Assembly (NCBI GenBank): GCA_000004985.1
Contig: GG738878.1
DNA: 64,000 nt
Strand: one strand, 5' to 3'
Origin: Naegleria gruberi
Lineage: Eukaryota
The notes under the pieces are model-generated. The model was given only the letters and a program-made list of their open reading frames with translations, made no database searches and was not told where the DNA came from. A program made the position numbers and the translations under genes. Shown here in pieces: positions 16,971-39,187 of the stretch; positions within the stretch are counted from its first letter, which is position 1, and each line of letters starts with the position of its first letter.

Positions 16971-19720
16971 TTAAACTTTCACCTCATCAAGCTCTTGATT
17001 CTTTGCAATTGAAGATGATTTCACATTCGCATACGAAAAATCTGATTTCTGCGTAACTTTCAAATAAACTTCTTCCAAAGTTGTTTGAGAAATTCCCCAA
17101 TCTTTAATTCCTAAAGTTGAATTTTCCAAATCTGAGATTAAATCCGATAATTCTGCAAGTTGCTGCTTGGGAATGTTAAAGATAAAGTTTCCAGCACTTT
17201 CGCTTACAATATTTACATTCGAAATTCGAGAGTTGACCATTGAAATAACATGTTGCTCGTGTCCAGTGTTGGCCACAACCATGAGATTGTAACCACTTCC
17301 ATATTGGGCTTTGATTGAAAGTGAATTTCCAACACATTTCAGTTGACCATGAGCCATGATAGCAATCTTGTCAGATAAATAATCGGCTTCGTCCATGGCA
17401 TGTGTGGTAAGAATCATGGCTCTTCCTTCTTTCATTTTGTGAATTAAATTCCATGCTTTCTTTCTTGAATATGGATCCTAATGAGGTGAATAAAGAAAAC
17501 TAAAGTTGTGAATAAACTTACCAAACCAGTGGTTGGCTCATCTAAGAGAACCAACTTTGGATTACCAATACAAGCAATACAAATGGATAATCTTCTCTTC
17601 ATACCACCTGAATAAGTCTTTGTCAAGTGATGGCCAACTTTTGACAAGTCAACCGATTCCAAAAAGTTGCTAACTTGTTCAGTTCTTTGTTTTCTTGGAA
17701 CTCCTTTCAAATCTCCAAACAATTCCAAATGCTCCTCAGCTGTCAAATCGTCCCACAAAATATCATGTTGTGGACACATTCCCAATTGCTTTCGAATATC
17801 TTCCATCGAATCTCTCACATTCAATCCAGCAATGAAAGCTTCACCAGATGATTGCTGGAACAGCCCAGTCAAAATATTCATTGTGGTTGATTTACCAGCT
17901 CCATTATGGCCCAACAAACTAACACATTGATTATCTTGCACAATTAAATTCAAACCTTTGAGAGCTTTCTTCTCAGAGAAGAATTTTCTAAATTTGGCGG
18001 GAAGAATTTTCAAAGCAATTTTGGCCAAGAATGAAGAAAATGTTCTTCTCAGTGAGATGATTCTGACAATGGCATTCTGATTGAAATCACGTGCCTTGGA
18101 AAACTCATTCTTTATATCTTGAGTTTCCATTTGATGCATATCAGTTTCGTCATTTGCATCAAGTTTCGACTTGGATTTCCATCTATTAATTCCCCAATAC
18201 GAAGGATATAAGAAGAAAATTGGTGACTTTCTAACACCATTTCCATCAGAAATTACATTATCACAATACCAATACAAGACGAGAAACAATAACCCATTAA
18301 GGAAAAGTGTTAAAATTCCCAACCACGAACCAGGAACATAATCGTAAGTGTTCTTTCCAATAAATAAATCTTCGATTGTGTAACCTGGACCAGTAACGTA
18401 CTTTCTTTGTGTGGAATCGTAAACTGGCAATGCTTTTACAGCAATGTCAATGAAAACCTTGGCAAAGTTGAAAGGTGGATAGAAGGAGAAGATTACAACT
18501 ATGAGAGGAGTGATGGAAGAGGAATAGAGCATGTAGACAATGTTACTATTCGAAACTGTCAAGTTCAAAATCTGAATCATGTTAATTTGAATGTGATGTT
18601 AATGAATAGTACTTACAAAGGAAATTGCCAAAACTGTAAATCCCAAAACTAGAGCAGATTTCGATTCCTTGATAAAAGTTGATAATAGGAAAGCTAAACA
18701 AATCAAGGAAAATGTGAAACTAAAGAATAATACATAAAGAACAATAAAGTCAGTATTCAAAAAGATTGAAATTTGAAAGATCATGCCACCAATCACATTG
18801 ACCAATGAGAAAACGGCACAGATAATCAAGAATGTAATGAACCATGATAGGAAATAGGCAGATTCTTTCATTCCCATCATAATCATGGCAAATCTTAGAC
18901 GAAACTCCTTCTCAACAACCAAACTATTCAATGAAATAATCAAGACAATCATGGCTCCAATACTAAAGAAGGTTGGTCCTGAATAATTGTACAATAAAAC
19001 TTCTCCATTCTTACTTTGAGGAGGTTGTGGAAAACTCTTAAAGTCAACCTGAATTGAATTTCTAGAATCAGCAAGTTCTTGAGTTCTGCCCAAATCTTTC
19101 ATTCTCAAATAAACAATGTTATTGTCAATTAGATTTTGTAAGGAGAGGAGTGGAGTTTTCAAATCCTCTCTAGTTCTATTATAGTACATGGTATATGAAA
19201 TGGTATCAATGGTATCTAGTGGACCATTTGGAATGAATGAAATACCAAACATGGTTTGATTTTGATGAGTGTACATCCAATTTTCCATCTCACTTTTGGT
19301 TGTAAACATTTTGTAATCAGTGTCTTGTTTCAAATTGTAATCAGAAATTAACAATTCCATTACCTTCTCTCCAAATGAAATACCATTAGCAGAATAAACT
19401 AATTTGTAACAAGCTCTTCCACCATTCGGTTTGCATTCGTAAAATTTTAAAGCAATTCCATTGTCATACGATTGTTGAGTTGGCACTTGAATTCCCTTAT
19501 GAATTAGCTCAATTGGCTGATGAATTGCACTCTCACCTGAAAAGTTAGCTTGCAAAACCTCCTTCATGACCACCAAAATCACCAAAATAATAATGGGAGA
19601 CAGCAATTGCATTCCAGTAGATTTCCATCTTCTTGTATAGAGCAGGAAATTCTTCTTTAACAAAATGAGCGTTTGTTTCAACACCTCCAACAGATAATTC
19701 ATAATAATAGTATTGAACAA
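16971..19720 (-). CDS. ABCA-subfamily ABC half-transporter (TMD-NBD), about 887 aa; three exons, approximately join(18617..19720, 17522..18571, 16971..17477)
   Basis: The N-terminus LKQTLILLKKNFLLYTRRWKSTGMQLLSPIIIL matches the ABCA leader. ABC-2 type TM helices follow. Walker A is GHNGAGKST. The signature/Walker B is [32 protein letters not shown]. After the splice comes PYSRKKAWNLIHKMKEGRAMILTTHAMDEAD. Minus-strand intron 1 is TTT|GTAAGT..ATTCAG| (45 nt). Intron 2 is GGTTTG|GTAAGT..CATTAG|GATCC (44 nt). Both joins are phase-consistent. Confidence 0.8.
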
Positions 19721-20004: not shown

Positions 20005-23000
20005 ATGAAAGAAACAAAGATTTTGGATGAGAATAGTGGTGGTGCTACTGCTACTACTACTGGCCAATCAGTGACAACTCCCATCGATTGTGATGATTTG
20101 TTAATGAAGAGTCGTGCTGGTAAGGAGTTGAATCAAGTGAGAGCATTGTTGTACAAATCATTGATGTTGCAAATGAAGCAATACAAGTAGGTTATTTCAT
20201 TGTTAATATTAGTATTCATGTATATTGTATTTTGTTCAACAAATACAGGTCAAATATTTGTCAATTGATATTCCCAGTCATTTGTTTAATGTTCATTTAC
20301 GTTTTACAAATAGTTGCAAATAGATTGATTGCAGGATTCTTTACAGGCAATGAGGGAGCTGCAGCAGTTGTTAGAATCAACTCTACATCTGTTGAACTTT
20401 CTCAACTCATGTATCAAGCAAAGATGCAAGCTCAAAACTTGACATTTAATCCTCCAGAGTCCCTCTTTTTCACCTCTGATAAGAATGACTATTTGAATAG
20501 TATTGGATTTGGTACCATGTCCTCTAATCAGTCTGGATCTAGTGGTTTCTTGGCTAATTTTTCTCCATGGTCCAGAAGTTCAGTCATGATGTTAGTGAAT
20601 GGTACCTTTGATGAGAAGGGAATGATTTCAATTCCATACTCTGTAACCTCTGCTTTTGGTAATGAAAGTACTATGGATGAAGTCATCTATGATAGAATGG
20701 GTGCTGTGGGAAAACTGAAAACTTGGATGCTGTTGGTGCCTATATTGTAAGAAAGTTGGACACCTCTGGTATCAATTACACTGTACAATTTGATTACCAT
20801 GAAAAGACTCAATTCTTTGCTGAATTCCTCTCAAAATCACCACTCACCTATATTGTTACAAGTGCTAGAGATGCTATTAGTGTTTCTCTTCAGAATTGGA
20901 TGAATGATGCCTTCCTGAAAAATCTTACTGGCTCTTTCAGAATTAGAACCTATACAGCTCAAATGACCTATGATACTCAATTAATTTCCTTCAGACTTTC
21001 TGACATGTTAGGTTCCTTCTTCTTTCCACTAATTCTTTCTCTATTATTACCAACATTTACCTTTACCATTGTTATGGAGAAGCAATACAAGTTGAGAGAA
21101 ATGATGAAATTGATGGGTATGAAGATGAGATATTACTTTTTGGTAACTTATGTATTTTTCTATGCAATGTATGCCCTCTCTGCTATTTTGTTCATCATCT
21201 TTTCTATTGCCTTTGATTTTAGATTTATAACCCAGACACATCCATTAATGTTAAGTAAGTATTCATTGCTTTTTCACATATATTTAACCAGGATACTTTA
21301 GTTTTCTTCTTCCTGTTGTGGGGAAATGTATTGATTAGTTTTTCATTCCTATTATCTTCGTTCATTGGTAAGACAATTGTAGCTACTATTGTTTCCTACT
21401 TGTTTGTTCTGATTGGACCAATGGTTGGTGTCCTTCTTGAACAAGCTCTCTATCCAAGTGCACCAGATGCAAGATATGGTCTCCTCTTATTGTTCCCTCT
21501 CCAAATTACTCACTTTGTCTTTGCTGCAACCAATTCATGTAATAACAATGCATGTTTGACAGATGTGGCTGATATTGTAAATAATGTATCTGTCCTCAGC
21601 TCACTTCTTTACATGTTGGGAGTTTCAGTGTTGTACTTCATATTGGGTCTGTACTTTGATGCCATTATTCCACAAACATTTGGTATAAGTAAACATCCAT
21701 TGTTCTTCCTGGAGTGGATGTGGAGGCCGTGTATTAAACGTCGTCTGAAGAGAGCTAAAAAGCACACTGAAAGTAAGAATCAAGTCCAACCATTTGGAGA
21801 TGAAGAAGGTGCTATTGATTACAATACCTCCGAAGTAATGGACAGTGATGTAGCTGAGGAGTTTAACAAGGTTAATCCAAGTAATATCACAGACAATGAA
21901 ATGCAAGAGCATGCTAGAAAATTGAAGGAAGAGCATGGTGTTGTCCTTTTCAATTTGGAAAAGAGTTTTGGAGGTAATAAGGCTGTTAAAGGTACCTGTC
22001 TCACTATTGGCAAATCTGAATGCTTTGGTTTGCTAGGTCTTAATGGAGCTGGTAAATCAACAACCATCTCAATGTTAGCAGGAATGTTTGGTCCAAGTTC
22101 TGGAACTGCATTTGTGTGCGGTAAAGATATTAGATATGACATGGACAGTATCCATCAAGTAATGGGCTTGACAGCACAATTTGATATTTTGTATCCTGAT
22201 TTGAGTTGTGAAGACCATTTACTCTTCTATTCCAGAATGAAGGGTGTGAAAATCAAGCACGAGAAGGAACACGTCCAATCTCTATTAAAACAAGTAGGTC
22301 TAGATAATGAAACTCTCAAAGTGAGATTCTCTCCAGCATCCAGCTCACTTTCAGGAGGTATGAAGAGAAGATTATCCATTGCCATTTCACTAATTGGTGA
22401 TCCGAAAGTAATCCTACTCGATGAGCCAACCACTGGACTGGATCCACTCTCCAAGAGACACTTGTGGGATATCATTCTCGCTCAAAAGAAGAATAGAACT
22501 GTCATTTTGACCACTCACTCCATGGAAGAAGCTGATGCCTTATGTGATCGAATGACCATCATGGTAAAAGGTTCTTTCAAATGCTTAGGTTCTGGTTTAA
22601 GATTGAAAAACAAGTTCGGAGATGGCTATTTGATGACCATCAGTTACCAACCAGAGAACCAAAACATTGCCGAGAAGTATGTCTACGATTACGTACCAGA
22701 GGCTGTGAAGGATCTGACTCTGAGTGGCATAACCATCTTCAAAATACCTCACCTTAATGCTCCTCATTCTCATCAAATAACAACAACAACAACAACAAAT
22801 CAAAACAGCAGCATAAGCCATAATAATAATAGTAGTGGGGAAAAGAATAGAACATTGGCTGGTTTGTTTAAACATATGGAAAGTGGAAAGGATCATCACG
22901 GAATTGAAGAGTGGGCTTTAAATCAAGTTTCATTAGAACAAGTCTTTTTGAATATAATTTCGAGTGATGCAAAGAGAAATCCATTGAAGGATGAATCCAA

Positions 23001-23043
23001 GTGGAAGCGATTAGCAACCATGTTCAAGCAATGTATCCATTGA
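20005..23043 (+). CDS. ABCA-subfamily ABC half-transporter (TMD-NBD), about 960 aa; four exons, approximately join(20005..20186, 20249..20705, 20756..21254, 21302..23043)
   Basis: It has an ABCA-type N-terminus and TMD. Walker A is GLLGLNGAGKST. The signature/Walker B is [33 protein letters not shown]. The H-loop is TTHSMEEAD. A poly-T/N insert follows (QITTTTTTNQNSS). Introns are AA|GTAGGT..ATACAG| (62 nt) and TTAA|GTAAGT..CTTTAG| (47 nt). The middle intron (GTGGGA..GAAAG, about 50 nt) is the only phase-compatible solution but has a weak donor. Confidence 0.75.
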
Positions 23044-24376: not shown

Positions 24377-25678
24377 ATGAAAACATCTCTCTTGGTTTTA
24401 TGCACCTTGATGGTACTCTGTGTATCCATTATGGCTGTGTCTGGCTCCTTCTTGGAACAAATTGTGGAAATGTCACTTTCTGATTCTAGAAGTTTCAAGT
24501 CGGGTGGTGGTAGCTCTGGAGGAGGTAGCAAATCTGGAAGCAGTAGCAGCAGCTCTGGAAAGTCATCCAGTAAGTCATCCTCATCCTCCAGTAAGAGTAC
24601 TAGCTCTAGTAAAACCTCCACTTCAAAGAGTTATAGCAAGTCAACTGTCTCATCAAAGATGGCCTCAGCTTATTCTCAATATGCTAACAGTAGAATTGCT
24701 GGTATGAAGAATCCAGCCAGCACCATGGCTGGTCTCAAAGCTGCCAATTTGAATGCTCGTTTAAGTGCTCAACCAACTGCTACTGTCAATGGTAAATTGA
24801 CTGCTGCTGGTATCAAGGCCTCTTATCAAAATCGATTGAATACAAGAGTTGCTGCTGCCTATCAACAATATGCTCAATCCAGAATGGCTGCTGCCAAACC
24901 AACTGCTAAGCCAACCAATATTGCTGCAGCTTATCAACAATACGCCCAATCTAGAATTGCTGGTATGAAGAATCCTGCTAGCACTTTGTCTAAACCAACT
25001 GCCAAACCTGCCAATATTGCTGCTGCCTATCAACAATATGCTCAGTCCAGAATTGCTGGTTTGAAGAATCCTGCCAGTACTCTCCCAGGTAGTTTCAAGA
25101 TTGATAAGGGTTTGCTTACTGTTAATGAAGGTAAACCTGCCACTACTGGTTACGTTCCACAATCCAAGGCAGGTACTGTCATTGGTAAATCAGGTGTTAC
25201 TGTTGGTACTGGATTCGATGTTGGTCAACAAAATGTTAAGGGTTTGAAAGCTCTTGGACTTTCACCAAGTTTAGTCGACAAGCTTTCTCCATACACTGGA
25301 TTGAAGCAACAAGCAGCTAAGGACTTTTTGGCTAAGAATCCATTGTCCCTATCGCCTGCTGAAGTTGCATCCATTGATAAGGCAGTTATGGACAAGTTTT
25401 CTGCCAATTTGGCCAAAGATTATGCAGCTGCTGCTGCCAAGAATCCAACTGCTGTCAAGAATTTCAAGGATTTGCCAGCTCCTGTCCAATCAGTTGCTTA
25501 CAGTGTCTACCATCAATATGGAAGCTTCTCCAAGACTCCAAGCTTCATGAACAAGTTGGCCACCAATGATTACAATGGAATGGTTCATGAATTGAGAAAC
25601 TTTGGTGATTCTTACTCAACAAGAAGAAATCGTGAAGCTGATCATTTGGAAAGTGGTTTGAAGGCTGCTTCAGGATAA
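24377..25678 (+). CDS. secreted protein with a Ser/Lys-rich low-complexity region, AAYQQYAQSRIAGMKNPAST repeats and a C-terminal phage-type lysozyme-like domain (paralog of 13787..15121)
   Basis: The ORF is 433 aa. The signal peptide is MKTSLLVLCTLMVLCVSIMAVSG, followed by SFLEQIVEMSLSDS. A (S/K)n tract follows. Three copies of a ~22-aa AAYQQYAQSR(I/M)AG(M/L)KNPAST repeat come next. The conserved C-terminal domain (FKIDKGLLTVNEG...GVTVGTGFDVGQQ...YSTRRNREADHLESGLKAASG) is shared with the 13787 gene. Confidence 0.6.
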   Translation: MKTSLLVLCTLMVLCVSIMAVSGSFLEQIVEMSLSDSRSFKSGGGSSGGGSKSGSSSSSSGKSSSKSSSSSSKSTSSSKTSTSKSYSKSTVSSKMASAYSQYANSRIAGMKNPASTMAGLKAANLNARLSAQPTATVNGKLTAAGIKASYQNRLNTRVAAAYQQYAQSRMAAAKPTAKPTNIAAAYQQYAQSRIAGMKNPASTLSKPTAKPANIAAAYQQYAQSRIAGLKNPASTLPGSFKIDKGLLTVNEGKPATTGYVPQSKAGTVIGKSGVTVGTGFDVGQQNVKGLKALGLSPSLVDKLSPYTGLKQQAAKDFLAKNPLSLSPAEVASIDKAVMDKFSANLAKDYAAAAAKNPTAVKNFKDLPAPVQSVAYSVYHQYGSFSKTPSFMNKLATNDYNGMVHELRNFGDSYSTRRNREADHLESGLKAASG

Positions 25679-25774: not shown

Positions 25775-27370
25775 TTAAAATCTCTTCCTCCTAATCAATT
25801 CAACCACCTCACTCATAAATTCCCTATCCTTGATGAGTTCTGGAGAAATAGATGTTAGAGAGCTGATTCCATGTATATTGAACAAATTCTCATCATGTTC
25901 CAACGCTGTGAGAACCACTTCCTTGTCCCTCTTAATTCTCTCATCGAACAATTGCAACAATGGGCCACTAATGGCTACAACTTGCAATGCAAATGATTTG
26001 TTGTGAAATAGTCCAGGTTGGAATAGCTTGAGTTTGAAAAGAGAGAAGGGATTTGACTTGCAAGCTTCGATAATCATATCAAAATCATCCTTGAATTTGG
26101 TCTTGTGAAGAAGATAGCCATTCTTTCTGATAGCTTCCAAGACGAAATCTCTGTTACCTGTTAGATCTGGGTGCAGGTAGCAATTTTCAGAATCTTTGGA
26201 TCCAATCGAATCAAGTACGAATTCCTTATTGAGTTGGAATGATTCGTGTGCGTATTCAAGTGCAGAGCTGTTCTGTTTCACTGCTGTTCGAATAATTTCC
26301 TCGTCCATCTTTAAATCATCACTAGCAAATTGTAAATCAGAACCTCTTCTTGCAACAGCTGTTAATACAATCTCTCTATCGCAGCGAAACCCTTCTGGTG
26401 TTACTGAGAGTGACATTCCATTCCTAACAAGGTTCATCACAACATTCCTATTCTTCATTAAAGAATCATTTATACCCTTCAAAGAGGTAATTTTGAAATT
26501 ATCTAAACAATGGTTAATAAACTCCTCGTCCTGTTTTAAATCTTTTGAAATGAAAGGAAATGCTTCCAAACTATTATTCATGGCTTCCAAAGCTATGACC
26601 TTATCTGATTTTAGAGATTGAGAAGCAAACTTTAACGATCCACCATTAGACTTAACTGCCTCTAAAACAATCTCCCTATCACTCCTTAACAGATCACTTG
26701 CATGATTCAAGTCATTTCCACAAGCTCTGACACATTTCAATACCAAATCTCTGTCCTCTCTGGCATCATCATTAAAGTAATCCAAACATCCACTTAATTC
26801 TACTCCAATACATGCTTCCATCACTTCCCTATCAGAGAAAACCTCAAATGGTAATTGATTAAGAGCAATCTTTGTTCCTTTCAAGGCTTCCAAAATCACA
26901 AATTTATCATTTTGCAAATCATCATCCAGCATTATGTAATTTCTAAAGTTATTCCTCACAGCTGTCAATATTAATTCTCTATCACTAACCAACAATTCAT
27001 CACTGATATACTCTGTAATAGAATGGCCAGTTTGAGCTGCAACCATCAACAATTCCCTATCATTGGAAATTAATTCGGAATAATCTTGCTCTTCTTCATC
27101 AGTGCGATGAGAGGATGGCAACGATTCCAAATAATTAAGCAATATATTAATACTCAAACCTCGCCTAATAGCTTGCAAGAATAATTCTCTACTACTTGGT
27201 GTTGTATTCATCAAATAATCTTCATACAAGACACTTAATTTAGAGAGAAACTTTTCCGATTTGAAACACAATACATCATCATTACCTTCATCACTTGTCT
27301 GCATTGTAGAATAATAGCTTGCACCAAAAATCAAAGGATTCCTTGATAAATTCATCATCCAAATAATCAA
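25775..27370 (-). CDS. DUF4116-type tandem-repeat protein
   Basis: The ORF is 531 aa. It holds at least 8 tandem ~37-aa repeats of the form D(R/K)E(I/F)VLxAVxxNGxxLxFASxxLKxDxE. An overlapping upstream ORF (27291..27602, other frame) carries one more repeat-like unit (SDREKIIQAITTINLDCFDYLDDEFI). The true start may therefore lie near 27602, with an indel or unresolved junction at about 27300-27370. Confidence 0.55.
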   Translation of the reverse strand: MIIWMMNLSRNPLIFGASYYSTMQTSDEGNDDVLCFKSEKFLSKLSVLYEDYLMNTTPSSRELFLQAIRRGLSINILLNYLESLPSSHRTDEEEQDYSELISNDRELLMVAAQTGHSITEYISDELLVSDRELILTAVRNNFRNYIMLDDDLQNDKFVILEALKGTKIALNQLPFEVFSDREVMEACIGVELSGCLDYFNDDAREDRDLVLKCVRACGNDLNHASDLLRSDREIVLEAVKSNGGSLKFASQSLKSDKVIALEAMNNSLEAFPFISKDLKQDEEFINHCLDNFKITSLKGINDSLMKNRNVVMNLVRNGMSLSVTPEGFRCDREIVLTAVARRGSDLQFASDDLKMDEEIIRTAVKQNSSALEYAHESFQLNKEFVLDSIGSKDSENCYLHPDLTGNRDFVLEAIRKNGYLLHKTKFKDDFDMIIEACKSNPFSLFKLKLFQPGLFHNKSFALQVVAISGPLLQLFDERIKRDKEVVLTALEHDENLFNIHGISSLTSISPELIKDREFMSEVVELIRRKRF

Positions 27371-27696
27371 AGCAATCTAAATTGATGGTGGTAATGGCTT
27401 GAATAATCTTCTCTCGATCGGAAATGAATTTTACAAGTGATGGATATGAAGAAAGAGTTTTTAAGAGTTTGTTTTCGAGAATTTCAGTTTGATATTTGAA
27501 TTGCAGTAAATCTGAGGTTGATGATTGGAAATGATCGAGTAAAATTACGACTAGATGTTCCTTCATTTTTTTTGTCTTTTCAATATATTGATTTAGATGC
27601 ATCTGTTACTCATCCGTAAGGTTTAAGTTGTTTCCTTAATAAATAAACATTGTTATTACATACTATATCATTGCATATTTCACAAATTTGATGTGA

Positions 27697-27770
27697 GCGC
27701 CGTTAGATCAGTTGGTTAGATCGTCAGCTTTACACGCTGAAGGTCAAGGGTTCGACTCCCTTACGGCGTA
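27697..27770 (+). tRNA. tRNA-Val (anticodon UAC)
   Basis: The cloverleaf is acceptor GCGCCGT/ACGGCGT, D-arm GATC-AGTTGGTTA-GATC, anticodon stem TCAGC/GCTGA with loop TTTACAC (U33, TAC, A37), variable loop AGGTC, T-arm AAGGG-TTCGACT-CCCTT and discriminator A. A T-run lies immediately 3'. Confidence 0.85.
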
Positions 27771-27906: not shown

Positions 27907-29226
27907 ATGAAGGAAATTATTCCCCTCTGTTTTGGACAATGTGGTATCAATATTGGCTCTGATTTTATTCAACAAATCTACAGGGAACATTTTTTCCCTT
28001 CCAAATCTTCATCCTCATCAATTCATGATCGGAATGCTAATTATAATGAAAATGATGAATTGATGATGAATACAATGAGAGGAGAAGCCTCTATTTACTT
28101 TTCCGAATCATCCAATAGTACATTCACCTCTCGGGGTCTTTTAATTGATTTACAAAGCCAATTTAAATATCAATCTAAATTGTTGAATAATGATGAAATA
28201 CAAAATACAATTGATTTGAATAATAATGTAATATTTCCAAGACAGAATGGTGTGTATTGCTCTCCAGATTGGCCAGGTGGTAAATATGAATCCGGAGCTG
28301 ATTTATTTACCAATGATGTGATGGATCGAGTGAGGAAATTATTGGAGGATTGTGATTCGTTTCATGGATTTCAGTTTTTTCATGGGATGGTTGGATCTTC
28401 GAGTGGTTTCTACTCGAGAATTTGTGCACATTTGAGAGAGGAGTATCCTGATAAGATGTTTTGGTCATGTAGTGTATTTCATGATTCCAAGAGTGAGGAT
28501 AAAGCAGTGTGGATGTATGATTCCATATTGACCTTTCAGTACATGATGGAGCTCAATGATATGATTACCTGTGTGAGGAATAGTGAGCTAATTGATAAAT
28601 GTGTACAGAATGGAAAGGATTATCCAACTTATAGAGATTATAATAATGTGATTAGAAGCTTCTTTCCAAACATTACATCAGTTTTTAGGTATCCTTCTCA
28701 ACAAGGATGTGATTTGAGGAAAATGTGTCTCAATCTTGCACCTACCAGACACTGCTTGATTGAAGTTAGTGAAACTACTGCTTTACAAAATGAGACAACA
28801 CCTATTTATGAAACAATTTATAATTTGAATAGTCAATTGATTCAACAAAAGAGTTCAGAGAAGATCCTTTCTGCCATTTCAATATTGAGAGCTAGTGGAA
28901 CATTGGGCTTGGAAGCAGAAAGAAACCTTCGGAAATCAGTCAAAGATCATTCACAATCAGAATTTCCATTCAAACCCCTTGTTGTGAATCAACAATCAAG
29001 CGATAACACGATCAGCAATACATTGCTTACCAACTCTTCATCAATTACCACGGCTCTGGAAAATATTTATGAAGTAACAGAAAGATTTTTCAGAAGGAAA
29101 ACTTTCATTTATGGATACACAAGAGGAGGATTAGAGGAAATGGAAATTACTGAATCTCAGTATTATCTTCGAGAGGCTATTGATACTTATACAGAGAGCG
29201 AACCTAAAGAAGATGAACTTGCTTAA
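27907..29226 (+). CDS. highly divergent tubulin-superfamily protein with a degenerate GTP-binding signature
   Basis: The ORF is 439 aa. The N-terminus MKEIIPLCFGQCGINIGSDFIQQIYREHF aligns with tubulin MREI..GQCGNQIG..FW. The segment HGFQFFHGMVGSSSGFYSRICAHLREEYPDKM aligns with tubulin [32 protein letters not shown], but the glycine loop is GMVGSSSG rather than GGGTGSG. The rest is strongly diverged. Confidence 0.6.
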   Translation: MKEIIPLCFGQCGINIGSDFIQQIYREHFFPSKSSSSSIHDRNANYNENDELMMNTMRGEASIYFSESSNSTFTSRGLLIDLQSQFKYQSKLLNNDEIQNTIDLNNNVIFPRQNGVYCSPDWPGGKYESGADLFTNDVMDRVRKLLEDCDSFHGFQFFHGMVGSSSGFYSRICAHLREEYPDKMFWSCSVFHDSKSEDKAVWMYDSILTFQYMMELNDMITCVRNSELIDKCVQNGKDYPTYRDYNNVIRSFFPNITSVFRYPSQQGCDLRKMCLNLAPTRHCLIEVSETTALQNETTPIYETIYNLNSQLIQQKSSEKILSAISILRASGTLGLEAERNLRKSVKDHSQSEFPFKPLVVNQQSSDNTISNTLLTNSSSITTALENIYEVTERFFRRKTFIYGYTRGGLEEMEITESQYYLREAIDTYTESEPKEDELA

Positions 29227-29587: not shown

Positions 29588-30400
29588 TTACTTTCCTAAA
29601 GCAAGAGCCAAGAATCCAGTTTCCTCTGCCAAACAAATTTCATATCCATCACAATCAGAAATAATCACCACTTCAACATCGGCCTTTCCAGGTGTTGGTA
29701 AAACAATTGGTTCCTTAACAATGGAAATTCCAGTCGAAACAAAAACTTCCTCTTCCTTTGCTTTCAATACTTTTTGATGCATTTCCTTAATATCGACCTT
29801 TGATGAAATTGCCAATCGACCAAAAGCTTCTCCATGAATCAATTCCTCACTCTCACTCAATTGAACAAATTCAATTTTGGCTTGATCTTGAGCAAAACCT
29901 AATAGGGCTCTATTTTCTCCTCTCTTGAAAACTTGCATTCCCAAAACTTGAGTATAGAATTGAATTTGTTTTTCCAAATTCTTGGTATGAAGTGAAATGT
30001 ATTGAACTTGATCATGTTCGAAAGAGTTTCTCTCACTTTCTTCCAAGTCTCTTTCTCTATTCACAAGCACATAGGTATATCCATTCGGATCAACAATAGT
30101 TTGCTTACTCTCAGCTGCCTTATCATGATGAATAACAATTTCTCTAAAATCATTACCCAACTTGTAACTCTTAATTCCATGATTTGCTGTCAATTCCAAA
30201 ACAAAGTGAAGATCTTCAGGTCCATATCCAATCATTGTCTTGGTCCAACTCAAATTATATCGACCATTACAAGCTGCTTCACATCCTGCATCAAATGATT
30301 CATGTCTCTGTTCAACCATGTTCAATTCCTTCTCATAGAATTGTTTAGACTTGGAATAGTTACCAATTTTGTGTACCCAATGAAGCATTCGGAATGACAT
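29588..30400 (-). CDS. glyoxalase domain-containing protein 4 (GLOD4-like, two VOC/glyoxalase-I domains)
   Basis: The ORF is 270 aa. It is collinear with GLOD4 (MSFRMLHWVHKIGNYSKSKQFYEKELNM.., ..GCEAACNGRYNLSWTKTMIGYGPEDLHFVLELTANHGIKSYKLGNDF.., ..LPTPGKADVEVVIISDCDGYEICLAEE). Confidence 0.8.
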   Translation of the reverse strand: MSFRMLHWVHKIGNYSKSKQFYEKELNMVEQRHESFDAGCEAACNGRYNLSWTKTMIGYGPEDLHFVLELTANHGIKSYKLGNDFREIVIHHDKAAESKQTIVDPNGYTYVLVNRERDLEESERNSFEHDQVQYISLHTKNLEKQIQFYTQVLGMQVFKRGENRALLGFAQDQAKIEFVQLSESEELIHGEAFGRLAISSKVDIKEMHQKVLKAKEEEVFVSTGISIVKEPIVLPTPGKADVEVVIISDCDGYEICLAEETGFLALALGK

Positions 30401-31428
30401 GATGATGATGATTAATTATTGATTATTATTAATATATTTGTTATCTTGTTATTAAATCTTTGATGATAATAAATTAATTTCTTCTCTCTTTAATTAAAAT
30501 TATTAATAATAATAAATATTAATTGATGATGATGATCAATAAGAAGAAGAATTTGATTTTTTTTCTGTTGTTTGGTTTGAAGGAGATGATAATCAACTAG
30601 ATGATTTATTGTTTTTTCAAATGGATTGGAATTACGGAGTTGAAGAGGAGAAACTATTGGTTGGAATTTCAGACAAGTAACTCCTGAAGATTGTGAATGG
30701 TTCAACCTTCATCAGGAGTAATAAGACTGAGGAGGAATGTTATTATGAATTTATTGTGTTGTGAACAAGTTCAAAGATTACATGAATTTGTTTGAATTGT
30801 ACTTGTATGATCTTATTTAGAGGGTTTATGTTGGTTGGTATCAACCTTCCACTTGTATTTTCTCCTTCTTCTGAAGATATTCTATGAATTATCTTCCTCA
30901 CACTTGTTAGATTCCTCAATAGCTTCCTCTGTTGATAATGTTCTTTGCCTTCTCAAATTATTGATGATGTTATGTTCAAGTACTTCTTTGCCTACCTTCT
31001 CAAAAGGTACCAATTTTACTTTTAATTATCGAGTTGTTGATGCTTGGAAGTGAAGACGCATCTTCCAACAATATTCTTCATAAGCAACTAATAGATGATG
31101 TGTACACGAAGTGAGAGTTGCTTTTCGATTTGTCTTCAGGCAATTAAATCCCCAAGATGATTTCCCTTCTGATGATGAATGGTTGTACACACTATAGTTG
31201 TTAGGCTTGCGTTCCGAATGTTATTGTATTCTTCATCCAATTAAAAGCCTTCCAATCCATCTGATAAACATCTTAACGATAACTTCAACAATTTTTATGT
31301 ATTATTGTTCTTCTCTTTTCAAAGCCTTTTTGCCTTCTCTTCATCAAATTGGCTTGAAAAAATTTTCATTGTAAAAAGCGTGGATGAGCAAACAACTTTA
31401 AAAATTGTTCGAAAAAAAAAGTCAAAAA

Positions 31429-32040
31429 ATGGGCGCCTATAAGTACTTGAATGCCTTGTATAAGAAGAAGCAATCTGATGCTTTGAGATATTTGTTGAGA
31501 GTCCGTGCTTGGGAATTAAGACAATTGCCAGGTATCCACAGAGTTAACCACCCAACCAGACCAGACAAGGCTCACGCTCTTGGTTTCAAATCCAAGCAAG
31601 GTTACGTCATCTACAGAGTCAGAATTCGTAGAGGTGGTCGTAAAAAGCAAGTCCCAGGTGGTAGAGTCAATGGTAAGCCAGCTACTCAAGGTATCCACTT
31701 GAAGCCAAAGAGAAACTTGCAAGTTGTTGCTGAAGGCAGAGTTGGTAAGAGAATTGGTGGTTTGAGAATTTTGAACTCATACTGGGTTAACCAAGACGGT
31801 AGATACAAGTGGTTCGAAGTCATCTGTGTTGATCCATCTGCTGAATCAATCAGAGTTGATCCACAAGTTAACTGGATCGCTTCTCCAAAGCATAAGCACA
31901 GAGAAATGAGAGGTTTGACTTCCTCTGGTAAGAGACACAGAGGTCTCAGAACTAAGGGGTGTACCTCATCCAAGGTTAGACCATCCAGAAGAGGCGGTTG
32001 GAAGAGAAGAAACACCACCAAGTTGCAAAGAAAGAGATAA
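31429..32040 (+). CDS. RPL15: 60S ribosomal protein L15 (eL15)
   Basis: [78 protein letters not shown]... is a near-canonical eL15 sequence. The gene is a single exon. The ORF-track start at 31405 is a TTG, and the true ATG is at 31429. Confidence 0.9.
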
Positions 32041-32807: not shown

Positions 32808-34406
32808 ATGATGTCAAATAATACAGTGACAGTTGGCAACTCAACAATTTGCCATGAATTTCTGTTTAATACAACATCGAGCAGAGAAATTCTACCTTCA
32901 ATTGAATATGATATCTGTCCTGATACCTACATTTCGTTTTGTAAGTTTCCCACAATCTCTACAATTGTGAATCCTAAACCAAACTAAACCTGTATTCGAA
33001 ACAATACAATAGCCATACTGTTGGCCTTTCTCACTGGATACATTCTACTTCTCCTCATCACTACCATTCTTGTCATATGGAAACGAAACTCTGGACATAT
33101 CCTTGCTCGTGATCCAGCTCAGTTAATCTTAACCATGTTGACAGGATTTCAATTTGTGGCCATTTTCTCACTTCGAATAATTATTGGAAGAAAGATCTTT
33201 CCATGTGCCCTGTATTCATATTGTTTCTTTGTTGTGGGGCCTGTAATTTGTCTTCCTTCCATATGTAGAAGTTTAAAATTATATTTCCATTTCAAGTTAA
33301 ATCTTCAGAAAATGAAATTCTTCAAGGAAAGTGAAACTCCAGACGATTCTTCATCTGTATTTTCAAGTTCTGATTCCATGTCTCATAATTCAGTGAAACA
33401 GAAATTACCAAATTTGAGAGTTTTGAAATTTTATCAATTTATGGTTAGCCACAAATTTATTATTGCAACCTATATCGGAGTTTTTATTATTCAAACCGCA
33501 ATATGGGCTATCGTTGGTGGAATTGATGAGATTTTATATTCACTCAATACGGATTTACAAAATAGGAAAAGGTTTTTTGTGAGTCCAGGATTTTTTGAAT
33601 TTAAAATTGGATGCAGTTTGACAAGTGGAATTTTAATTGTAATCTTGATTGAGTCAGTGTTTTATATTGCAGCTGAGGTGATTACATTGATAATGTGTAT
33701 TAGATCTGATAGAGATACTTGGTCAATTAAGAAGGAAACTTTGATTTATGTCATTGTTCAATCAATTGGAATTTCTCTATTTGTCATTTCATCATTTATT
33801 GATATCATGTCAATATTGGTTGATTATTTCGTACCATATGCCTTGTTCATGTTTGGAGCTCTTGCTTTGGAAACTATCATTTGTGTGCTACTTCCTGTGT
33901 GTTATGCTATTAGAAAGGATTTCCACTCAACACATCACAATCCACAAGATAGCACTCTGGAAAGTATTTTGAAAAACAAGAAGGGATTCAAAACAATTCT
34001 CGATTTTGCTCGTAGATCCTATTGTCCAGAAGCAGTTCTCTGTTGGTCTGATATTCAGAGATTTAAGGATTGTAAGAAACGTGAGAAAAAGCTTGAAATT
34101 GCCAAGTATATTATTGAGCATTATTTGACACCTTCCAGTTATTTAGAGTTAAATATGCCACAATTGGCAAATGTCAAGGAGGAATTAAGTTTGATGGTGA
34201 TGGGTTCAGCAAGTACAGTTTCTAATGATGTATTCGATATGATTGAGAATCATTGTTTGCAGGATTTGGCTGATTTACAGCATAGATTGGTGAGCAGTGA
34301 TAAATTTATCGCATCAATGGTGCAAGAATTGAAGGAATTACAAAGATTGAAAGCAAGCTGTGAAGAGAAGGTAGAAGAAACTTTCAATGTTGAATTGGAA
34401 ATTTAA
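32808..34406 (+). CDS. seven-transmembrane protein with a C-terminal RGS domain (7TM-RGS); two exons join(32808..32940, 33013..34406)
   Basis: Exon 1 is MMSNNTVTVGNSTICHEFLFNTTSS... with NxS/T sequons, typical of an extracellular GPCR N-terminus. It ends TTT T|GTAAGT. The acceptor CAATAG|CC restores the frame. Exon 2 encodes about 7 hydrophobic helices and then an RGS-like domain (KTILDFARRSYCPEAVLCWSDIQRFKD..AKYIIEHYLTPSSYLELNMPQ), followed by a coiled-coil tail. Confidence 0.6.
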
Positions 34407-36709
34407 AACTGTGACAAGTTGATGATTATTCCTCGCATTAGCTTGTCCGGTAATTTCTCAATCCTTGCATAATCAGTGAAGAGGAGTTTTTTGTTTGAGA
34501 CTCCAAAGTTGACCAGTTCATTAAGAATATTCTCAAATAAAGGGCAATTTAAATAATTTTCAAAACTTGATGCAAGATCAAAGTAATTATCAATTGTAAT
34601 TATCAGCGTACTTTTAAAATAATCAACAAAATAATGAATTTCATGAATGATTGCCATATCAATTAATGTAAAAAGTTTTGATGGATCTATCTCGTAAACT
34701 GGAATTCCATAACAATATTTGATGATAATTTCTAATAATTCCAAATCCATTGAATCATCAGGTGTAAAGACATCATCACTAAGATCACTGAATGATGATC
34801 CACTTTCGAATAATGCATTAAAAAATGTACTTTTGGAACTGAGTATTGTTTTGTGGCAGTATAAATACTTGTCTTGTCCCATTTTGATTTTAACGTCGCT
34901 TGCTTTTTCATTATTAAATAATCTTTCAATTCCCTGTTGTTCAATTTCATTATCCTCCTGTATTTCAATTGGACTTGTAACATGTGTTTCCATTACAGAT
35001 AAAATGTTAAAGCTATATCTCTTAATGATGGGATAAGACAAAAGTGTTTTTCCTGTAAGAGACTTTAACTGGATGGCAGAATATTCCAAACAATAATTGT
35101 TCAAATATTCAAGTAAATGATTTTGAATTTCTATTTCTTCATGACAAAGTTTGAGTAAATTATCAACTTGTTCCCATTTTGAAGGAAGTGTTTCCAGTGT
35201 GATGGAATTAATAAATCCATGTACAAATGCTCTTTTAAAATCGATAAATTCACAATTCTTGAACATTCCTAAAATGAATAATACATTCAATATATCATAT
35301 TCTCTAAATGAATTCAATCTTTCAATCTCTGTAAATTGATATATATTTTCATATATCAATGAATCAATTAGTTTTTGTATAATTACTATTTGTTGCGAAT
35401 TCATTGATTTCAATAGTTTTTCATTTTTCAATATTATTTTACAAAATTGTGGTGATAACTTTTCTATTAATGGAATAAATCCAATCAATTCCAATCCAAA
35501 TAATTCATCTCTTGAATGTTTTTTCAATTGGATTTTTGGAATTATAGTATAATCATTTCCAATATGTGGATGCGATGAAAAATCAAATGGTGAATCACCT
35601 CCAAATCCTTCTTCACCATTTCCAGCAATTGTTTTAATTGTTCCATTTCTTAATATTTTTCTAATTCTATGATTTTCTGTATCAGCAATATAAACTTCAT
35701 CATTTCGAGAAACGAATATATTGTCTACATATGATATTTGTGCATTAATTGCAAGTCCTCCATCACCACTATATCCTTTAACTCCAGTTCCTGCAATTGT
35801 TGTAATATTGGCATTTCTTAATATTTTTCTAATTCTATAATTTCCACTATTCATAATATAAACTTCATTCGTTGATGAAACAAATACACCACATGGATGG
35901 TTAACTTGTGCATTAATTGCAGGACCACCATCACCACTGAATCCTTCTTCTCCAGTTCCTGCAATTGTATTAATAATTCCATTTCTTAATATTTTTCTAA
36001 TTCGATGATTGTTGTAATCTACAATATAAACTTCATCGTTATTAGAAACAAAAACACCACAAGGGCTGTCTAATTGTGCACTTGTTGCAGGGCCACCATC
36101 TCCACTAAATCCTTTTTCTCCAGTTCCTGCAATTGTTACAATAGTTCCATTTCTCAATATCTTTCTAATTCTATGATTTCCAAAATCAGAAAAATAAATT
36201 TCATCATTTTGAGAAACGAATATATTCTGTACATATGATATTTGTGCATTAATTGCAGGTCTACCATCACCACTATATCCTTTTTCTCCAGTTCCTGCAA
36301 TTGTTACAATATTGCCATTTCTTAATATTTTTCTAATTCTATAATTTCCACTATCAGCAAAAAAAACTTCATTCGTTGATGAAACAAATACACTACATGG
36401 ATGGCTCAATTGTGCACTTGTTGCAGGATCACCGTCACCACTAAATCCTTCTTCTCCAGTTCCTGCGATGGTGACTATAGTTCCATCTTTTAATATTTTT
36501 CTCACCCTATGATTTTGGCAATCTGCCATATAAACCTCATCATTCGGAGCAACAAACACTCCTCCCGGACAATTTAACATTGCTTTAGTGGCTAATTTTT
36601 TATTCATCATTTTAGCCTTTTTCTTTACTTTATTTTCGTCATTTTCATCATTTTCTGATGATGAAGAAGCCGATGATGATGCGGATGAAGAACAAAGGCT
36701 TCGTTTCAT
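34403..36709 (-). CDS. NHL-repeat beta-propeller protein with a C-terminal BTB/POZ domain (paralog A)
   Basis: About 769 aa from MKRSL at 36709. The ORF-track start at 36733 is an upstream in-frame TTG. It has at least 7 NHL-type repeats (..HRIRKILRNGTIVTIAGTGEEGFSGDGGPA..AQL..PCGVFVS..DEVY.AD..N). A helical middle region follows. The C-terminal BTB is DVKIKMGQDKYLYCHKTILSSKSTFFNALFESGSSFSDLSDDVFTPDDSMDLELLEIIIKYCYG. Its stop codon overlaps the stop of the convergent 7TM-RGS gene. Confidence 0.7.
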   Translation of the reverse strand: MKRSLCSSSASSSASSSSENDENDENKVKKKAKMMNKKLATKAMLNCPGGVFVAPNDEVYMADCQNHRVRKILKDGTIVTIAGTGEEGFSGDGDPATSAQLSHPCSVFVSSTNEVFFADSGNYRIRKILRNGNIVTIAGTGEKGYSGDGRPAINAQISYVQNIFVSQNDEIYFSDFGNHRIRKILRNGTIVTIAGTGEKGFSGDGGPATSAQLDSPCGVFVSNNDEVYIVDYNNHRIRKILRNGIINTIAGTGEEGFSGDGGPAINAQVNHPCGVFVSSTNEVYIMNSGNYRIRKILRNANITTIAGTGVKGYSGDGGLAINAQISYVDNIFVSRNDEVYIADTENHRIRKILRNGTIKTIAGNGEEGFGGDSPFDFSSHPHIGNDYTIIPKIQLKKHSRDELFGLELIGFIPLIEKLSPQFCKIILKNEKLLKSMNSQQIVIIQKLIDSLIYENIYQFTEIERLNSFREYDILNVLFILGMFKNCEFIDFKRAFVHGFINSITLETLPSKWEQVDNLLKLCHEEIEIQNHLLEYLNNYCLEYSAIQLKSLTGKTLLSYPIIKRYSFNILSVMETHVTSPIEIQEDNEIEQQGIERLFNNEKASDVKIKMGQDKYLYCHKTILSSKSTFFNALFESGSSFSDLSDDVFTPDDSMDLELLEIIIKYCYGIPVYEIDPSKLFTLIDMAIIHEIHYFVDYFKSTLIITIDNYFDLASSFENYLNCPLFENILNELVNFGVSNKKLLFTDYARIEKLPDKLMRGIIINLSQF

Positions 36710-36752
36710 TTTTTTTGTAAAAAAAATCTTCAAATGAAAAGATCAAGTCAAC

Positions 36753-39187
36753 NNNNNNNNNNNNNNNNNNNNNNNNNNNNNNNNNNNNNNNNNNNNNNNN
36801 NNNNNNNNNNNNNNNNNNNNNNNNNNNNNNNNNNNNNNNNNNNNNNNNNNNNNNNNNNNNNNNNNNNNNNNNNNNNNNNNNNNNNNNNNNNNNNNNNNNN
36901 NNNNNNNNNNNNNNNNNNNNNNNNNNNNNNNNNNNNNNNNNNNNNNNNNNNNNNNNNNNNNNNNNNNNNNNNNNNNNNNNNNNNNNNNNNNNNNNNNNNN
37001 NNNNNNNNNNNNNNNNNNNNNNNNNNNNNNNNNNNNNNNNNNNNNNNNNNNNNNNNNNNNNNNNNNNNNNNNNNNNNNNNNNNNNNNNNNNNNNNNNNNN
37101 NNNNNNNNNNNNNNNNNNNNNNNNNNNNNNNNNNNNNNNNNNNNNNNNNNNNNNNNNNNNNNNNNNNNNNNNNNNNNNNNNNNNNNNNNNNNNNNNNNNN
37201 NNNNNNNNNNNNNNNNNNNNNNNNNNNNNNNNNNNNNNNNNNNNNNNNNNNNNNNNNNNNNNNNNNNNNNNNNNNNNNNNNNNNNNNNNNNNNNNNNNNN
37301 NNNNNNNNNNNNNNNNNNNNNNNNNNNNNNNNNNNNNNNNNNNNNNNNNNNNNNNNNNNNNNNNNNNNNNNNNNNNNNNNNNNNNNNNNNNNNNNNNNNN
37401 NNNNNNNNNNNNNNNNNNNNNNNNNNNNNNNNNNNNNNNNNNNNNNNNNNNNNNNNNNNNNNNNNNNNNNNNNNNNNNNNNNNNNNNNNNNNNNNNNNNN
37501 NNNNNNNNNNNNNNNNNNNNNNNNNNNNNNNNNNNNNNNNNNNNNNNNNNNNNNNNNNNNNNNNNNNNNNNNNNNNNNNNNNNNNNNNNNNNNNNNNNNN
37601 NNNNNNNNNNNNNNNNNNNNNNNNNNNNNNNNNNNNNNNNNNNNNNNNNNNNNNNNNNNNNNNNNNNNNNNNNNNNNNNNNNNNNNNNNNNNNNNNNNNN
37701 NNNNNNNNNNNNNNNNNNNNNNNNNNNNNNNNNNNNNNNNNNNNNNNNNNNNNNNNNNNNNNNNNNNNNNNNNNNNNNNNNNNNNNNNNNNNNNNNNNNN
37801 NNNNNNNNNNNNNNNNNNNNNNNNNNNNNNNNNNNNNNNNNNNNNNNNNNNNNNNNNNNNNNNNNNNNNNNNNNNNNNNNNNNNNNNNNNNNNNNNNNNN
37901 NNNNNNNNNNNNNNNNNNNNNNNNNNNNNNNNNNNNNNNNNNNNNNNNNNNNNNNNNNNNNNNNNNNNNNNNNNNNNNNNNNNNNNNNNNNNNNNNNNNN
38001 NNNNNNNNNNNNNNNNNNNNNNNNNNNNNNNNNNNNNNNNNNNNNNNNNNNNNNNNNNNNNNNNNNNNNNNNNNNNNNNNNNNNNNNNNNNNNNNNNNNN
38101 NNNNNNNNNNNNNNNNNNNNNNNNNNNNNNNNNNNNNNNNNNNNNNNNNNNNNNNNNNNNNNNNNNNNNNNNNNNNNNNNNNNNNNNNNNNNNNNNNNNN
38201 NNNNNNNNNNNNNNNNNNNNNNNNNNNNNNNNNNNNNNNNNNNNNNNNNNNNNNNNNNNNNNNNNNNNNNNNNNNNNNNNNNNNNNNNNNNNNNNNNNNN
38301 NNNNNNNNNNNNNNNNNNNNNNNNNNNNNNNNNNNNNNNNNNNNNNNNNNNNNNNNNNNNNNNNNNNNNNNNNNNNNNNNNNNNNNNNNNNNNNNNNNNN
38401 NNNNNNNNNNNNNNNNNNNNNNNNNNNNNNNNNNNNNNNNNNNNNNNNNNNNNNNNNNNNNNNNNNNNNNNNNNNNNNNNNNNNNNNNNNNNNNNNNNNN
38501 NNNNNNNNNNNNNNNNNNNNNNNNNNNNNNNNNNNNNNNNNNNNNNNNNNNNNNNNNNNNNNNNNNNNNNNNNNNNNNNNNNNNNNNNNNNNNNNNNNNN
38601 NNNNNNNNNNNNNNNNNNNNNNNNNNNNNNNNNNNNNNNNNNNNNNNNNNNNNNNNNNNNNNNNNNNNNNNNNNNNNNNNNNNNNNNNNNNNNNNNNNNN
38701 NNNNNNNNNNNNNNNNNNNNNNNNNNNNNNNNNNNNNNNNNNNNNNNNNNNNNNNNNNNNNNNNNNNNNNNNNNNNNNNNNNNNNNNNNNNNNNNNNNNN
38801 NNNNNNNNNNNNNNNNNNNNNNNNNNNNNNNNNNNNNNNNNNNNNNNNNNNNNNNNNNNNNNNNNNNNNNNNNNNNNNNNNNNNNNNNNNNNNNNNNNNN
38901 NNNNNNNNNNNNNNNNNNNNNNNNNNNNNNNNNNNNNNNNNNNNNNNNNNNNNNNNNNNNNNNNNNNNNNNNNNNNNNNNNNNNNNNNNNNNNNNNNNNN
39001 NNNNNNNNNNNNNNNNNNNNNNNNNNNNNNNNNNNNNNNNNNNNNNNNNNNNNNNNNNNNNNNNNNNNNNNNNNNNNNNNNNNNNNNNNNNNNNNNNNNN
39101 NNNNNNNNNNNNNNNNNNNNNNNNNNNNNNNNNNNNNNNNNNNNNNNNNNNNNNNNNNNNNNNNNNNNNNNNNNNNNNNNNNNNNNN
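36753..39187. other. assembly gap (N-run, 2435 nt)
   Basis: A continuous run of n characters. ORF-track entries that cross it (X-stretch ORFs) are artifacts. Confidence 1.

Follow-up and report, generated by a model that had tools for sequence, protein, structure and literature searches.

An extremely divergent beta-tubulin paralogue of Naegleria gruberi with apparently degenerate phosphate-binding loops

A stretch of 64,000 nucleotides from Naegleria gruberi (contig GG738878.1 of assembly GCA_000004985.1; the window) carries, at positions 27907-29226 on the plus strand, a single-exon open reading frame (ORF) for a tubulin-like protein. In order of closeness, the described systems with which this protein can be compared are canonical beta-tubulin, the divergent beta paralogues of N. 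gruberi itself, and the ciliate beta-like tubulins of the theta and iota type. The class is already described. The 'bonus' tubulins of Fulton 2022 (XP_002670151.1, D2W0C0; XP_002671050.1, D2VY59) are uncharacterised beta-like paralogues with gaps and additions (PMC9081340). The N. gruberi mitotic betas (JGI 55748 and 55900) arose by divergence from the flagellar type, for a specialised use (PMC9036621). Findeisen et al. 2014 grouped divergent tubulins of N. gruberi and of ciliates ('theta', 'iota') at the base of beta, and described four Paramecium betas without a P-loop, for which a structural, non-polymerising role was suggested (PMC4202323).

The analysis of the ORF protein indicates that it is probably a functional, fast-evolved beta-tubulin paralogue, found so far only in the N. 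gruberi lineage, that does not act as a normal subunit switched by guanosine triphosphate (GTP). Its sequence places it as beta-derived and extremely long-branched, and as the most divergent from canonical beta among the sequences compared.

Identity, fold and relationships of the protein

The ORF consists of 439 codons and a stop. At 33-35% GC the per-codon stop probability is 0.072, so that on the base composition of the window 439 sense codons would arise by chance with a probability of ~5e-15; when the coding sequence (CDS) was shuffled 2000 times, no stop-free run exceeded 146 codons. The ORF is therefore real, being far beyond chance. The protein is identical (100%) to XP_002675383.1 (EFC42639.1; UniProt D2VKR7; JGI 88212) except for two extra Ser in a poly-Ser run, which marks the window as nuclear DNA of N. 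gruberi. The database title of that entry is 'beta-tubulin [Naegleria gruberi]', to which one source adds 'LOW QUALITY PROTEIN'. The gene is already known in that it has been deposited, named and included in a published phylogeny. Searching the literature by accession turned up no paper whose text names or studies it, and the label 'beta-tubulin' overstates what is known of the gene.

According to the Pfam profile search, residues 3-232 correspond to positions 1-189 of the 190 of PF00091, the Tubulin/FtsZ GTPase domain (93.4 bits, the gathering score being 33; E 2.9e-26), and PF03953 (Tubulin_C) gave no match at E <= 1, so that the second domain is recognisable only through full-length alignment and the predicted structure. 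In a phmmer search against all PDB chain sequences, the best 60 matches were all beta-tubulin. The top match, yeast Tub2 (5w3f_B; E 2e-43), aligned residues 1-431 with residues 1-425, which establishes collinearity with beta-tubulin over the whole length. The preliminary description of the locus had proposed a highly divergent tubulin-superfamily gene from two strings, MKEIIPLCFGQCGINIG at the start of the protein and GFQFFHGMVGSSSGFYSRICAHLREEYPDKM in the T4 region (residues 154-184), and had set a profile search as the test. Both strings are present as quoted, and the profile search and the full-length alignment bear out the family assignment. Its statement that most of the remaining sequence is unalignable does not hold, since HMMER aligns the full length to beta-tubulin. 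A weak match (33 bits) to PF14881, the Misato-type Tubulin_3 family, suggested a relationship to Misato/DML1; this was dropped, the full-length similarity being to beta-tubulin.

The AlphaFold2 program, supplied with a 69-sequence alignment, produced a model with a mean predicted local distance difference test score (pLDDT) of 85.3 and a predicted template modelling score of 0.90. Low confidence was restricted to the H1-S2 insertion (31-60), T5 (191-200), the M-loop and H9 (291-320) and the tail. The best 50 Foldseek matches of the model in the PDB were all B or D chains of tubulin entries, that is beta-tubulin, with template modelling scores of 0.82-0.88 and 23-26% identity over ~450 columns. 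The predicted structure is thus a two-domain tubulin fold with the C-terminal helices H11-H12.

The phmmer scores were 153 bits for XP_002670151 and 144 for human TUBB3, against 68 for gamma-, 67 for alpha- and 50 for delta-tubulin, and the protein is therefore taken as beta-derived and not delta. This comparison took in alpha, beta, gamma and delta references; in the PDB, the human alpha and gamma references matched entries of their exact class at 1053 and 1033 bits. Identity to any beta, including those of N. gruberi, was only 25-30%, which supports the high divergence noted in the preliminary description. BLASTP gave 26.6% with the flagellar beta (JGI 83350), 26.8% and 25.4% with the mitotic betas 55748 and 55900 (sequences from Data S6), 27% with TUBB3 and 30% with XP_002670151. 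For scale, human alpha and beta share 41% and beta and gamma 34%.

A word-indexed homologue search returned only the protein itself, one environmental beta and two delta-tubulins, and was too insensitive, so an exhaustive HMMER search was used instead. Among the 1.84 billion representatives scanned, in which the coverage of N. fowleri and N. lovaniensis is unconfirmed, no relative exceeded ~32% identity. The top non-self match (192 bits) was set aside as an artefact of two matched stretches, being the model of a fish beta-tubulin in which one segment is duplicated. The other matches looked up came from Filamoeba, Stentor, Adineta, Anaeramoeba, environmental contigs and N. gruberi (XP_002671050), and all those examined were beta-like except one microsporidian gamma-tubulin. 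Further alleles or orthologues were absent from two scans of metagenomes, which used peptide patterns in one case and the back-translated pattern of HGFQFFHGMVG in the other. In the collections searched, sequence comparison has so far detected no orthologue of the gene outside the N. gruberi lineage.

In our neighbour-joining (NJ) bootstrap tree the protein had a support of no more than 33%, and alpha was nested among beta-like sequences. In the portions of the maximum-likelihood (ML) tree of Velle et al. that concern the gene, it stands on a terminal branch of 2.52 substitutions/site, weakly sister to divergent tubulins of Oxytricha, Stylonychia and Paramecium (inner node 20.1/0.6/66). Other divergent N. 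gruberi sequences nearby carry alpha or beta labels. The gene was pruned from the tree as displayed; the tree includes N. fowleri sequences, none of which stands beside the gene in the portions examined. The grouping with ciliates may be long-branch attraction, because the support is weak and the joined branches measure 1.4-2.5 substitutions/site. In the exhaustive HMMER search no ciliate sequence, such as the beta-like tubulins of Paramecium ('theta' and 'iota'), Oxytricha, Stylonychia and Tetrahymena, could be singled out as a particular relative.

Nucleotide pocket and contact surfaces

In beta-tubulin, loops T2-T5 provide the magnesium, phosphate and ribose contacts of the nucleotide pocket, and T6 and H7 provide guanine contacts. 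The corresponding elements of the ORF protein are given in Table 1 with their canonical counterparts. Compared with yeast Tub2 and human TUBB3, the protein is collinear over its full length and shares the fold, the T1 motif GQCG, REEYPD after H4, the T6 Asn, the H7 Tyr and Asn, T7 DLRK with its Lys, the NS(T/S)xI motif (here NSSSI) and the FRRK...EME..E motif of H11-H12, kept as FRRKTFIYGYTRGGLEEMEITE. It differs from them in that T4 GGGTGSG, T3 AGNN, the T2 Glu, the T5 Glu, the N-terminal MREI (here MKEI) and the E-hook are found in the canonical proteins only; its tail has 8 residues, 4 of them acidic, against ~20 residues and 12 acidic in TUBB3. Further differences from beta are insertions in H1-S2 (~14 low-complexity residues) and after T2 (8 residues), deletions of 10 and 5 residues in the intermediate domain, a rewritten M-loop, and a T6 Asp replaced by Arg.

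Table 1. Coordinates of the divergent tubulin gene and of its sequence elements in the window
Feature	Residues	Window positions	Strand	Observation	Basis
Divergent beta-tubulin paralogue		27907..29226	+	Single-exon ORF	Pfam, phmmer, database identity
T1 loop	10-17	27934..27957	+	GQCGINIG vs canonical GQCGNQIG; G10-Q11-C12-G13 kept, N14I, Q15N	Alignment
Enlarged H1-S2 loop	~31-60	27997..28086	+	Low complexity, poly-Ser/Asn; predicted disordered (pLDDT 50-73); all inter-allele in-frame indels lie here	Alignment, AlphaFold2
T2 loop	80-94	28144..28188	+	IDLQSQ vs canonical VDLEPG; Mg-site Glu to Gln, then 8-residue insertion FKYQSKLL	Alignment
T3 loop	111-127	28237..28287	+	GQSGAGNNWAKGHY to PRQNGVYCSPDWPGGKY; 3 residues added, gamma-phosphate-sensing AGNN lost	Alignment
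T4 signature loop	159-169	28381..28413	+	HGM-VGSSSGFY; shorter by one residue, two Gly of the GGGTGSG core still present	Alignment
T5 loop	189-206	28471..28524	+	SVVPSPKVSDTVVEPYNA to SVFHDSKSEDKAVWMYDS; ribose-contact Glu to Trp, YN to YD	Alignment
T6-H7	222-248	28570..28650	+	Guanine contacts kept: N225 in CVRNSEL, Y242 and N246 in PTYRDYNNV	Alignment
T7-H8	262-276	28690..28734	+	YPSQQGCDLRKMCLN; D-L-R-K kept, beta-type Lys at the position of the catalytic Glu of alpha-tubulin	Alignment
S7/M-loop	278-302	28738..28812	+	PFPRLHFF to PTRHCLIE; 11% identity to beta, low model confidence	Alignment, AlphaFold2
H11-H12	395-418	29089..29160	+	FRRKTFIYGYTRGGLEEMEITESQ; comparatively well kept	Alignment
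Short C-terminal tail		29200..29223	+	EPKEDELA, without long acidic E-hook	Alignment

The most marked changes concern the phosphate loops. T3 has CSPDWPGG in place of AGNNWAKG; T5, the loop of the ribose contact, has SEDKAVWMYD in place of SDTVVEPYN. The invariant GGGTGSG of T4, which the preliminary description had rightly found degraded, reads GM-VGSSSG and is one residue shorter; the PROSITE signature PS00227, [SAG]-G-G-T-G-[SA]-G, has no counterpart in the ORF protein. The T4 columns that are Gly in 93% and 99% of the compared sequences hold a gap and a Ser, and the deletion occurs in this protein alone among 69 sequences. Identity to beta is 20% in T3 and 33% in T4, against 60-90% for the same loops of alpha, gamma and XP_002670151 (60-88% for alpha and gamma). 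Judged from the alignment, T3 and T4 are the least conserved elements of the protein, which is the reverse of the usual tubulin conservation pattern. Out of 44 columns conserved at 80% or more, in a set of 67 mostly divergent beta-like tubulins that also holds 2 delta and 1 gamma, the ORF protein keeps 31, the lowest number in the set, with losses clustered in T4, T5 and T6. These comparisons point to a specific degeneration of the phosphate loops with the guanine contacts kept.

The other divergent paralogues of N. gruberi do not share this condition. XP_002670151, the best-scoring real relative, and XP_002671050 have a near-canonical T4 (GGGSGSG and IIGGSGSG, respectively), and the former also keeps T3 as AGGNWAKG. 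Their identity to canonical beta is ~47% and ~33%, respectively; that of the ORF protein is the lowest and its T4 the only shortened one. Similarly, the mitotic betas, to which the ORF protein has 25-27% identity, keep all GTP-binding loops, are ~57% identical to human beta and have orthologues in N. fowleri and Acrasis, whereas for the ORF protein no orthologue was detected.

Second allele, probable role and alternatives

An intact allele of 444 amino acids (P0154) was found on an environmental contig of 3,020 bp (ENA ERZ929261; locus L001). Neither the window protein nor P0001 had an exact match in the contig index, and P0154 alone gave the contig. L001 is syntenic with the window: in both, a gene for tRNA-Val(UAC) lies upstream, and downstream there follows, on the opposite strand, a GLOD4-like gene. 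The two loci are 96.7% identical over 2.85 kb. The CDSs differ by 9 synonymous and 8 non-synonymous substitutions (S = 262, N = 1055), which corresponds to a synonymous divergence (dS) of 0.035, a non-synonymous divergence (dN) of 0.0076 and a dN/dS of ~0.22; if the 17 changes were neutral, no more than 8 non-synonymous ones would be expected among them with a binomial probability of 0.0025. Mismatches amount to 1.3% in the CDS and 2.3% in the flanks, which have 20 gap positions each. The indels of the CDS (12 and 3 nt) are in frame and lie within the low-complexity H1-S2 loop. Since dN/dS is ~0.22 and the frame has survived ~2.5 substitutions/site, the gene appears to be kept and not decaying, on a small sample; at the sequence level, the second natural allele shows purifying selection over a short measurable span. 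One of the replacements, G119D, falls inside the former T3 loop and is consistent with a T3 that no longer senses the gamma-phosphate.

The poly-Ser tract of the H1-S2 loop (27997-28020, residues 31-38) has five Ser in the window (KSSSSSIH) and three in the RefSeq protein. The L001 allele has five, and additional His, Asp, Arg and Asn residues further on. The tract is hypervariable and microsatellite-like, which may explain the 'LOW QUALITY PROTEIN' label.

Taken together, the kept elements comprise the whole tubulin fold, T1 G-Q-C-G, the guanine contacts of T6 and H7, the beta-type T7 D-L-R-K and H11-H12; the half of the pocket that recognises guanine and the beta-type minus-end face are thereby preserved. 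The rebuilt ones are the T3 and T4 phosphate loops, the T2 Mg-site Glu, the T5 ribose Glu, the acidic tail and the loops of lateral contact, namely the M-loop and the enlarged H1-S2 and H2-S3. The rebuilt parts, which include the phosphate, Mg and ribose half of the pocket, are those that make canonical beta an exchangeable-GTP, lattice-forming subunit. The motifs suggest that the protein has no normal GTP-switch role in dynamic microtubules and is no standard lattice subunit; it would more likely be a nucleotide-insensitive protein of tubulin fold, or a constitutive or weak nucleotide binder. Speculatively, its beta-type minus-end (T7/H8) face might serve for pairing with a partner of alpha type, perhaps one of the equally divergent alpha-like paralogues of N. 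gruberi, and such a partnership could have a structural, capping or regulatory role and not one in bulk polymer formation. That a subunit without a GTP switch, nucleotide-free or holding nucleotide as a structural cofactor, forms a cap, seam, junction or non-microtubule assembly with an aberrant alpha-like paralogue is a tentative idea that we regard as rather doubtful.

Several points weigh against a fast-evolved paralogue outside the GTP switch. The loss of GTP binding would follow from motifs alone, it can be argued from the retained T1 GQCG, N225, Y242 and N246 that some nucleotide is still bound, and the Ser-rich VGSSSG loop could still hold phosphates. The partner and role proposed above are speculation. 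The confidence of the AlphaFold2 model partly reflects the tubulin alignment supplied to it, the dN/dS estimate stems from only 17 substitutions between two very close alleles, and the literature searched holds no expression, localisation or biochemical data for the gene.

Some of these points lead to the alternative of a working, GTP-binding and polymerising beta isotype of a specialised microtubule array, in which the Ser-rich T4 and the altered T3 still hold nucleotide. The pocket residues just named, Y242 and N246 among them, and T7 DLRK have been preserved although overall identity is down to 27%, the fold is confidently predicted, selection is purifying, and N. gruberi already uses divergent tubulins in mitosis (PMC9036621). 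Yet those mitotic betas retain GGGTGSG and AGNNWAKG at ~57% identity to human beta, whereas in the ORF protein precisely T3 and T4 are least conserved and T2 and T5 are changed. Alterations also affect its M-loop, its lateral-contact loops H1-S2 and H2-S3, and its E-hook. Fulton judged the 'bonus' tubulins of N. gruberi unlikely to self-assemble (PMC9081340), and an isotype of this kind is, on balance, unlikely. The preliminary description had offered three readings, of which a pseudo-GTPase tubulin paralogue fits best, though only at the level of motifs.

Another of its readings, a decaying gene, here taken as a duplicate or pseudogene whose frame happens to be open still, draws on the extreme divergence with loss of near-invariant residues, on the lack of an orthologue in the protein and metagenome collections searched, on the 'LOW QUALITY PROTEIN' title, and on the literature searched offering no evidence of expression. 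However, a frame of this length, with its minute chance probability, has outlasted the long branch, secondary-structure elements persist, as do many of the buried or structural positions, and the CDS differs less between alleles than its indel-rich flanks. The sole related allele, independent of the first, is no frameshifted remnant, having an intact ORF with in-frame indels only and the signature of purifying selection, and decay is accordingly quite improbable. As for the remaining one, an epsilon- or zeta-like or 'cryptic' outlier, or more generally a delta, epsilon, zeta or cryptic tubulin mislabelled as beta, the identity of ~27% to beta is no higher than beta and delta have with each other, and the NJ tree gave no placement. 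Against this, the scores with beta are double those with alpha, gamma or delta, in a comparison that included no epsilon or zeta reference, the best sequence and structural matches in the PDB are uniformly beta, T7 has the beta-type Lys, the cluster seen in the consulted part of the Velle et al. tree consists of divergent ciliate and N. gruberi tubulins labelled alpha or beta, and Findeisen et al. class such tubulins as beta (PMC4202323). We therefore give membership of another family hardly any credence.

Surroundings of the gene and significance

The tRNA-Val(UAC) gene lies at 27697-27770 (+), 137 nt upstream of the start codon of the tubulin-like gene (202-275 in L001), and the similarity between the window and L001 ends just upstream of it. 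Downstream, the GLOD4-like glyoxalase-domain protein is encoded at 29588-30400 (-) (2106-2918 in L001), with one of 270 amino acids different between the two. Further upstream, a DUF4116 repeat protein is encoded at 25775-27370 (-) (10 repeats, E 2e-84). On the 5' side of this gene, at higher window positions, a short overlapping ORF at 27291-27602 (-) matches DUF4116 weakly, and because of this the DUF4116 gene model could extend further and involve an intron or a frame change. Two ORFs, at 13787-15121 (-) and 24377-25678 (+), contain the PF16754 Pesticin C-terminal domain (E 1e-70 and 7e-69), described as a bacterial toxin homologue of phage lysozyme and unusual in a eukaryotic genome; the pair could be a bacterial acquisition that has since been duplicated. 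The window also encodes ABC transporters with an ABC-2 membrane domain and an ABC_tran ATPase (17444-19720 (-) and 21316-23043 (+)), ribosomal protein L15e (31405-32040 (+)) and an RGS-domain protein (33021-34406 (+)).

An assembly gap of 2435 N occupies positions 36753-39187. It accounts for the block of 11-13% GC and for the spurious 'ORFs' of 840-1283 amino acids on both strands at 36.6-40.6 kb; the GC-poor block at 36-40 kb, considered as an odd repeat, was rejected as a run of N. Proteins with NHL repeats and a BTB/POZ domain are encoded on both sides of the gap (34403-36733 (-) and 41320-43686 (+)), and their NHL repeats correspond to 168-bp tandem DNA repeats (75-77% matches) at 35594-36540 and 39511-40369. 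Given these flanking genes and repeats, the gap probably lies inside an array of paralogous NHL-BTB genes.

N. gruberi inspired the multi-tubulin hypothesis, and what its very divergent alpha- and beta-like genes do is recognised as an open question (PMC9081340). Among the genes examined here, the beta-derived paralogue is the extreme case, with the fold kept and purifying selection detected over a short span, yet with the phosphate loops, usually the best conserved part of a tubulin, least conserved. If the gene is expressed, it would offer a natural experiment on the capacities of the tubulin fold without the canonical GTP switch. If the more tentative idea of a subunit that has abandoned the GTP switch is true, it would represent a eukaryotic 'pseudo-tubulin' under selection, in an organism without interphase microtubules.

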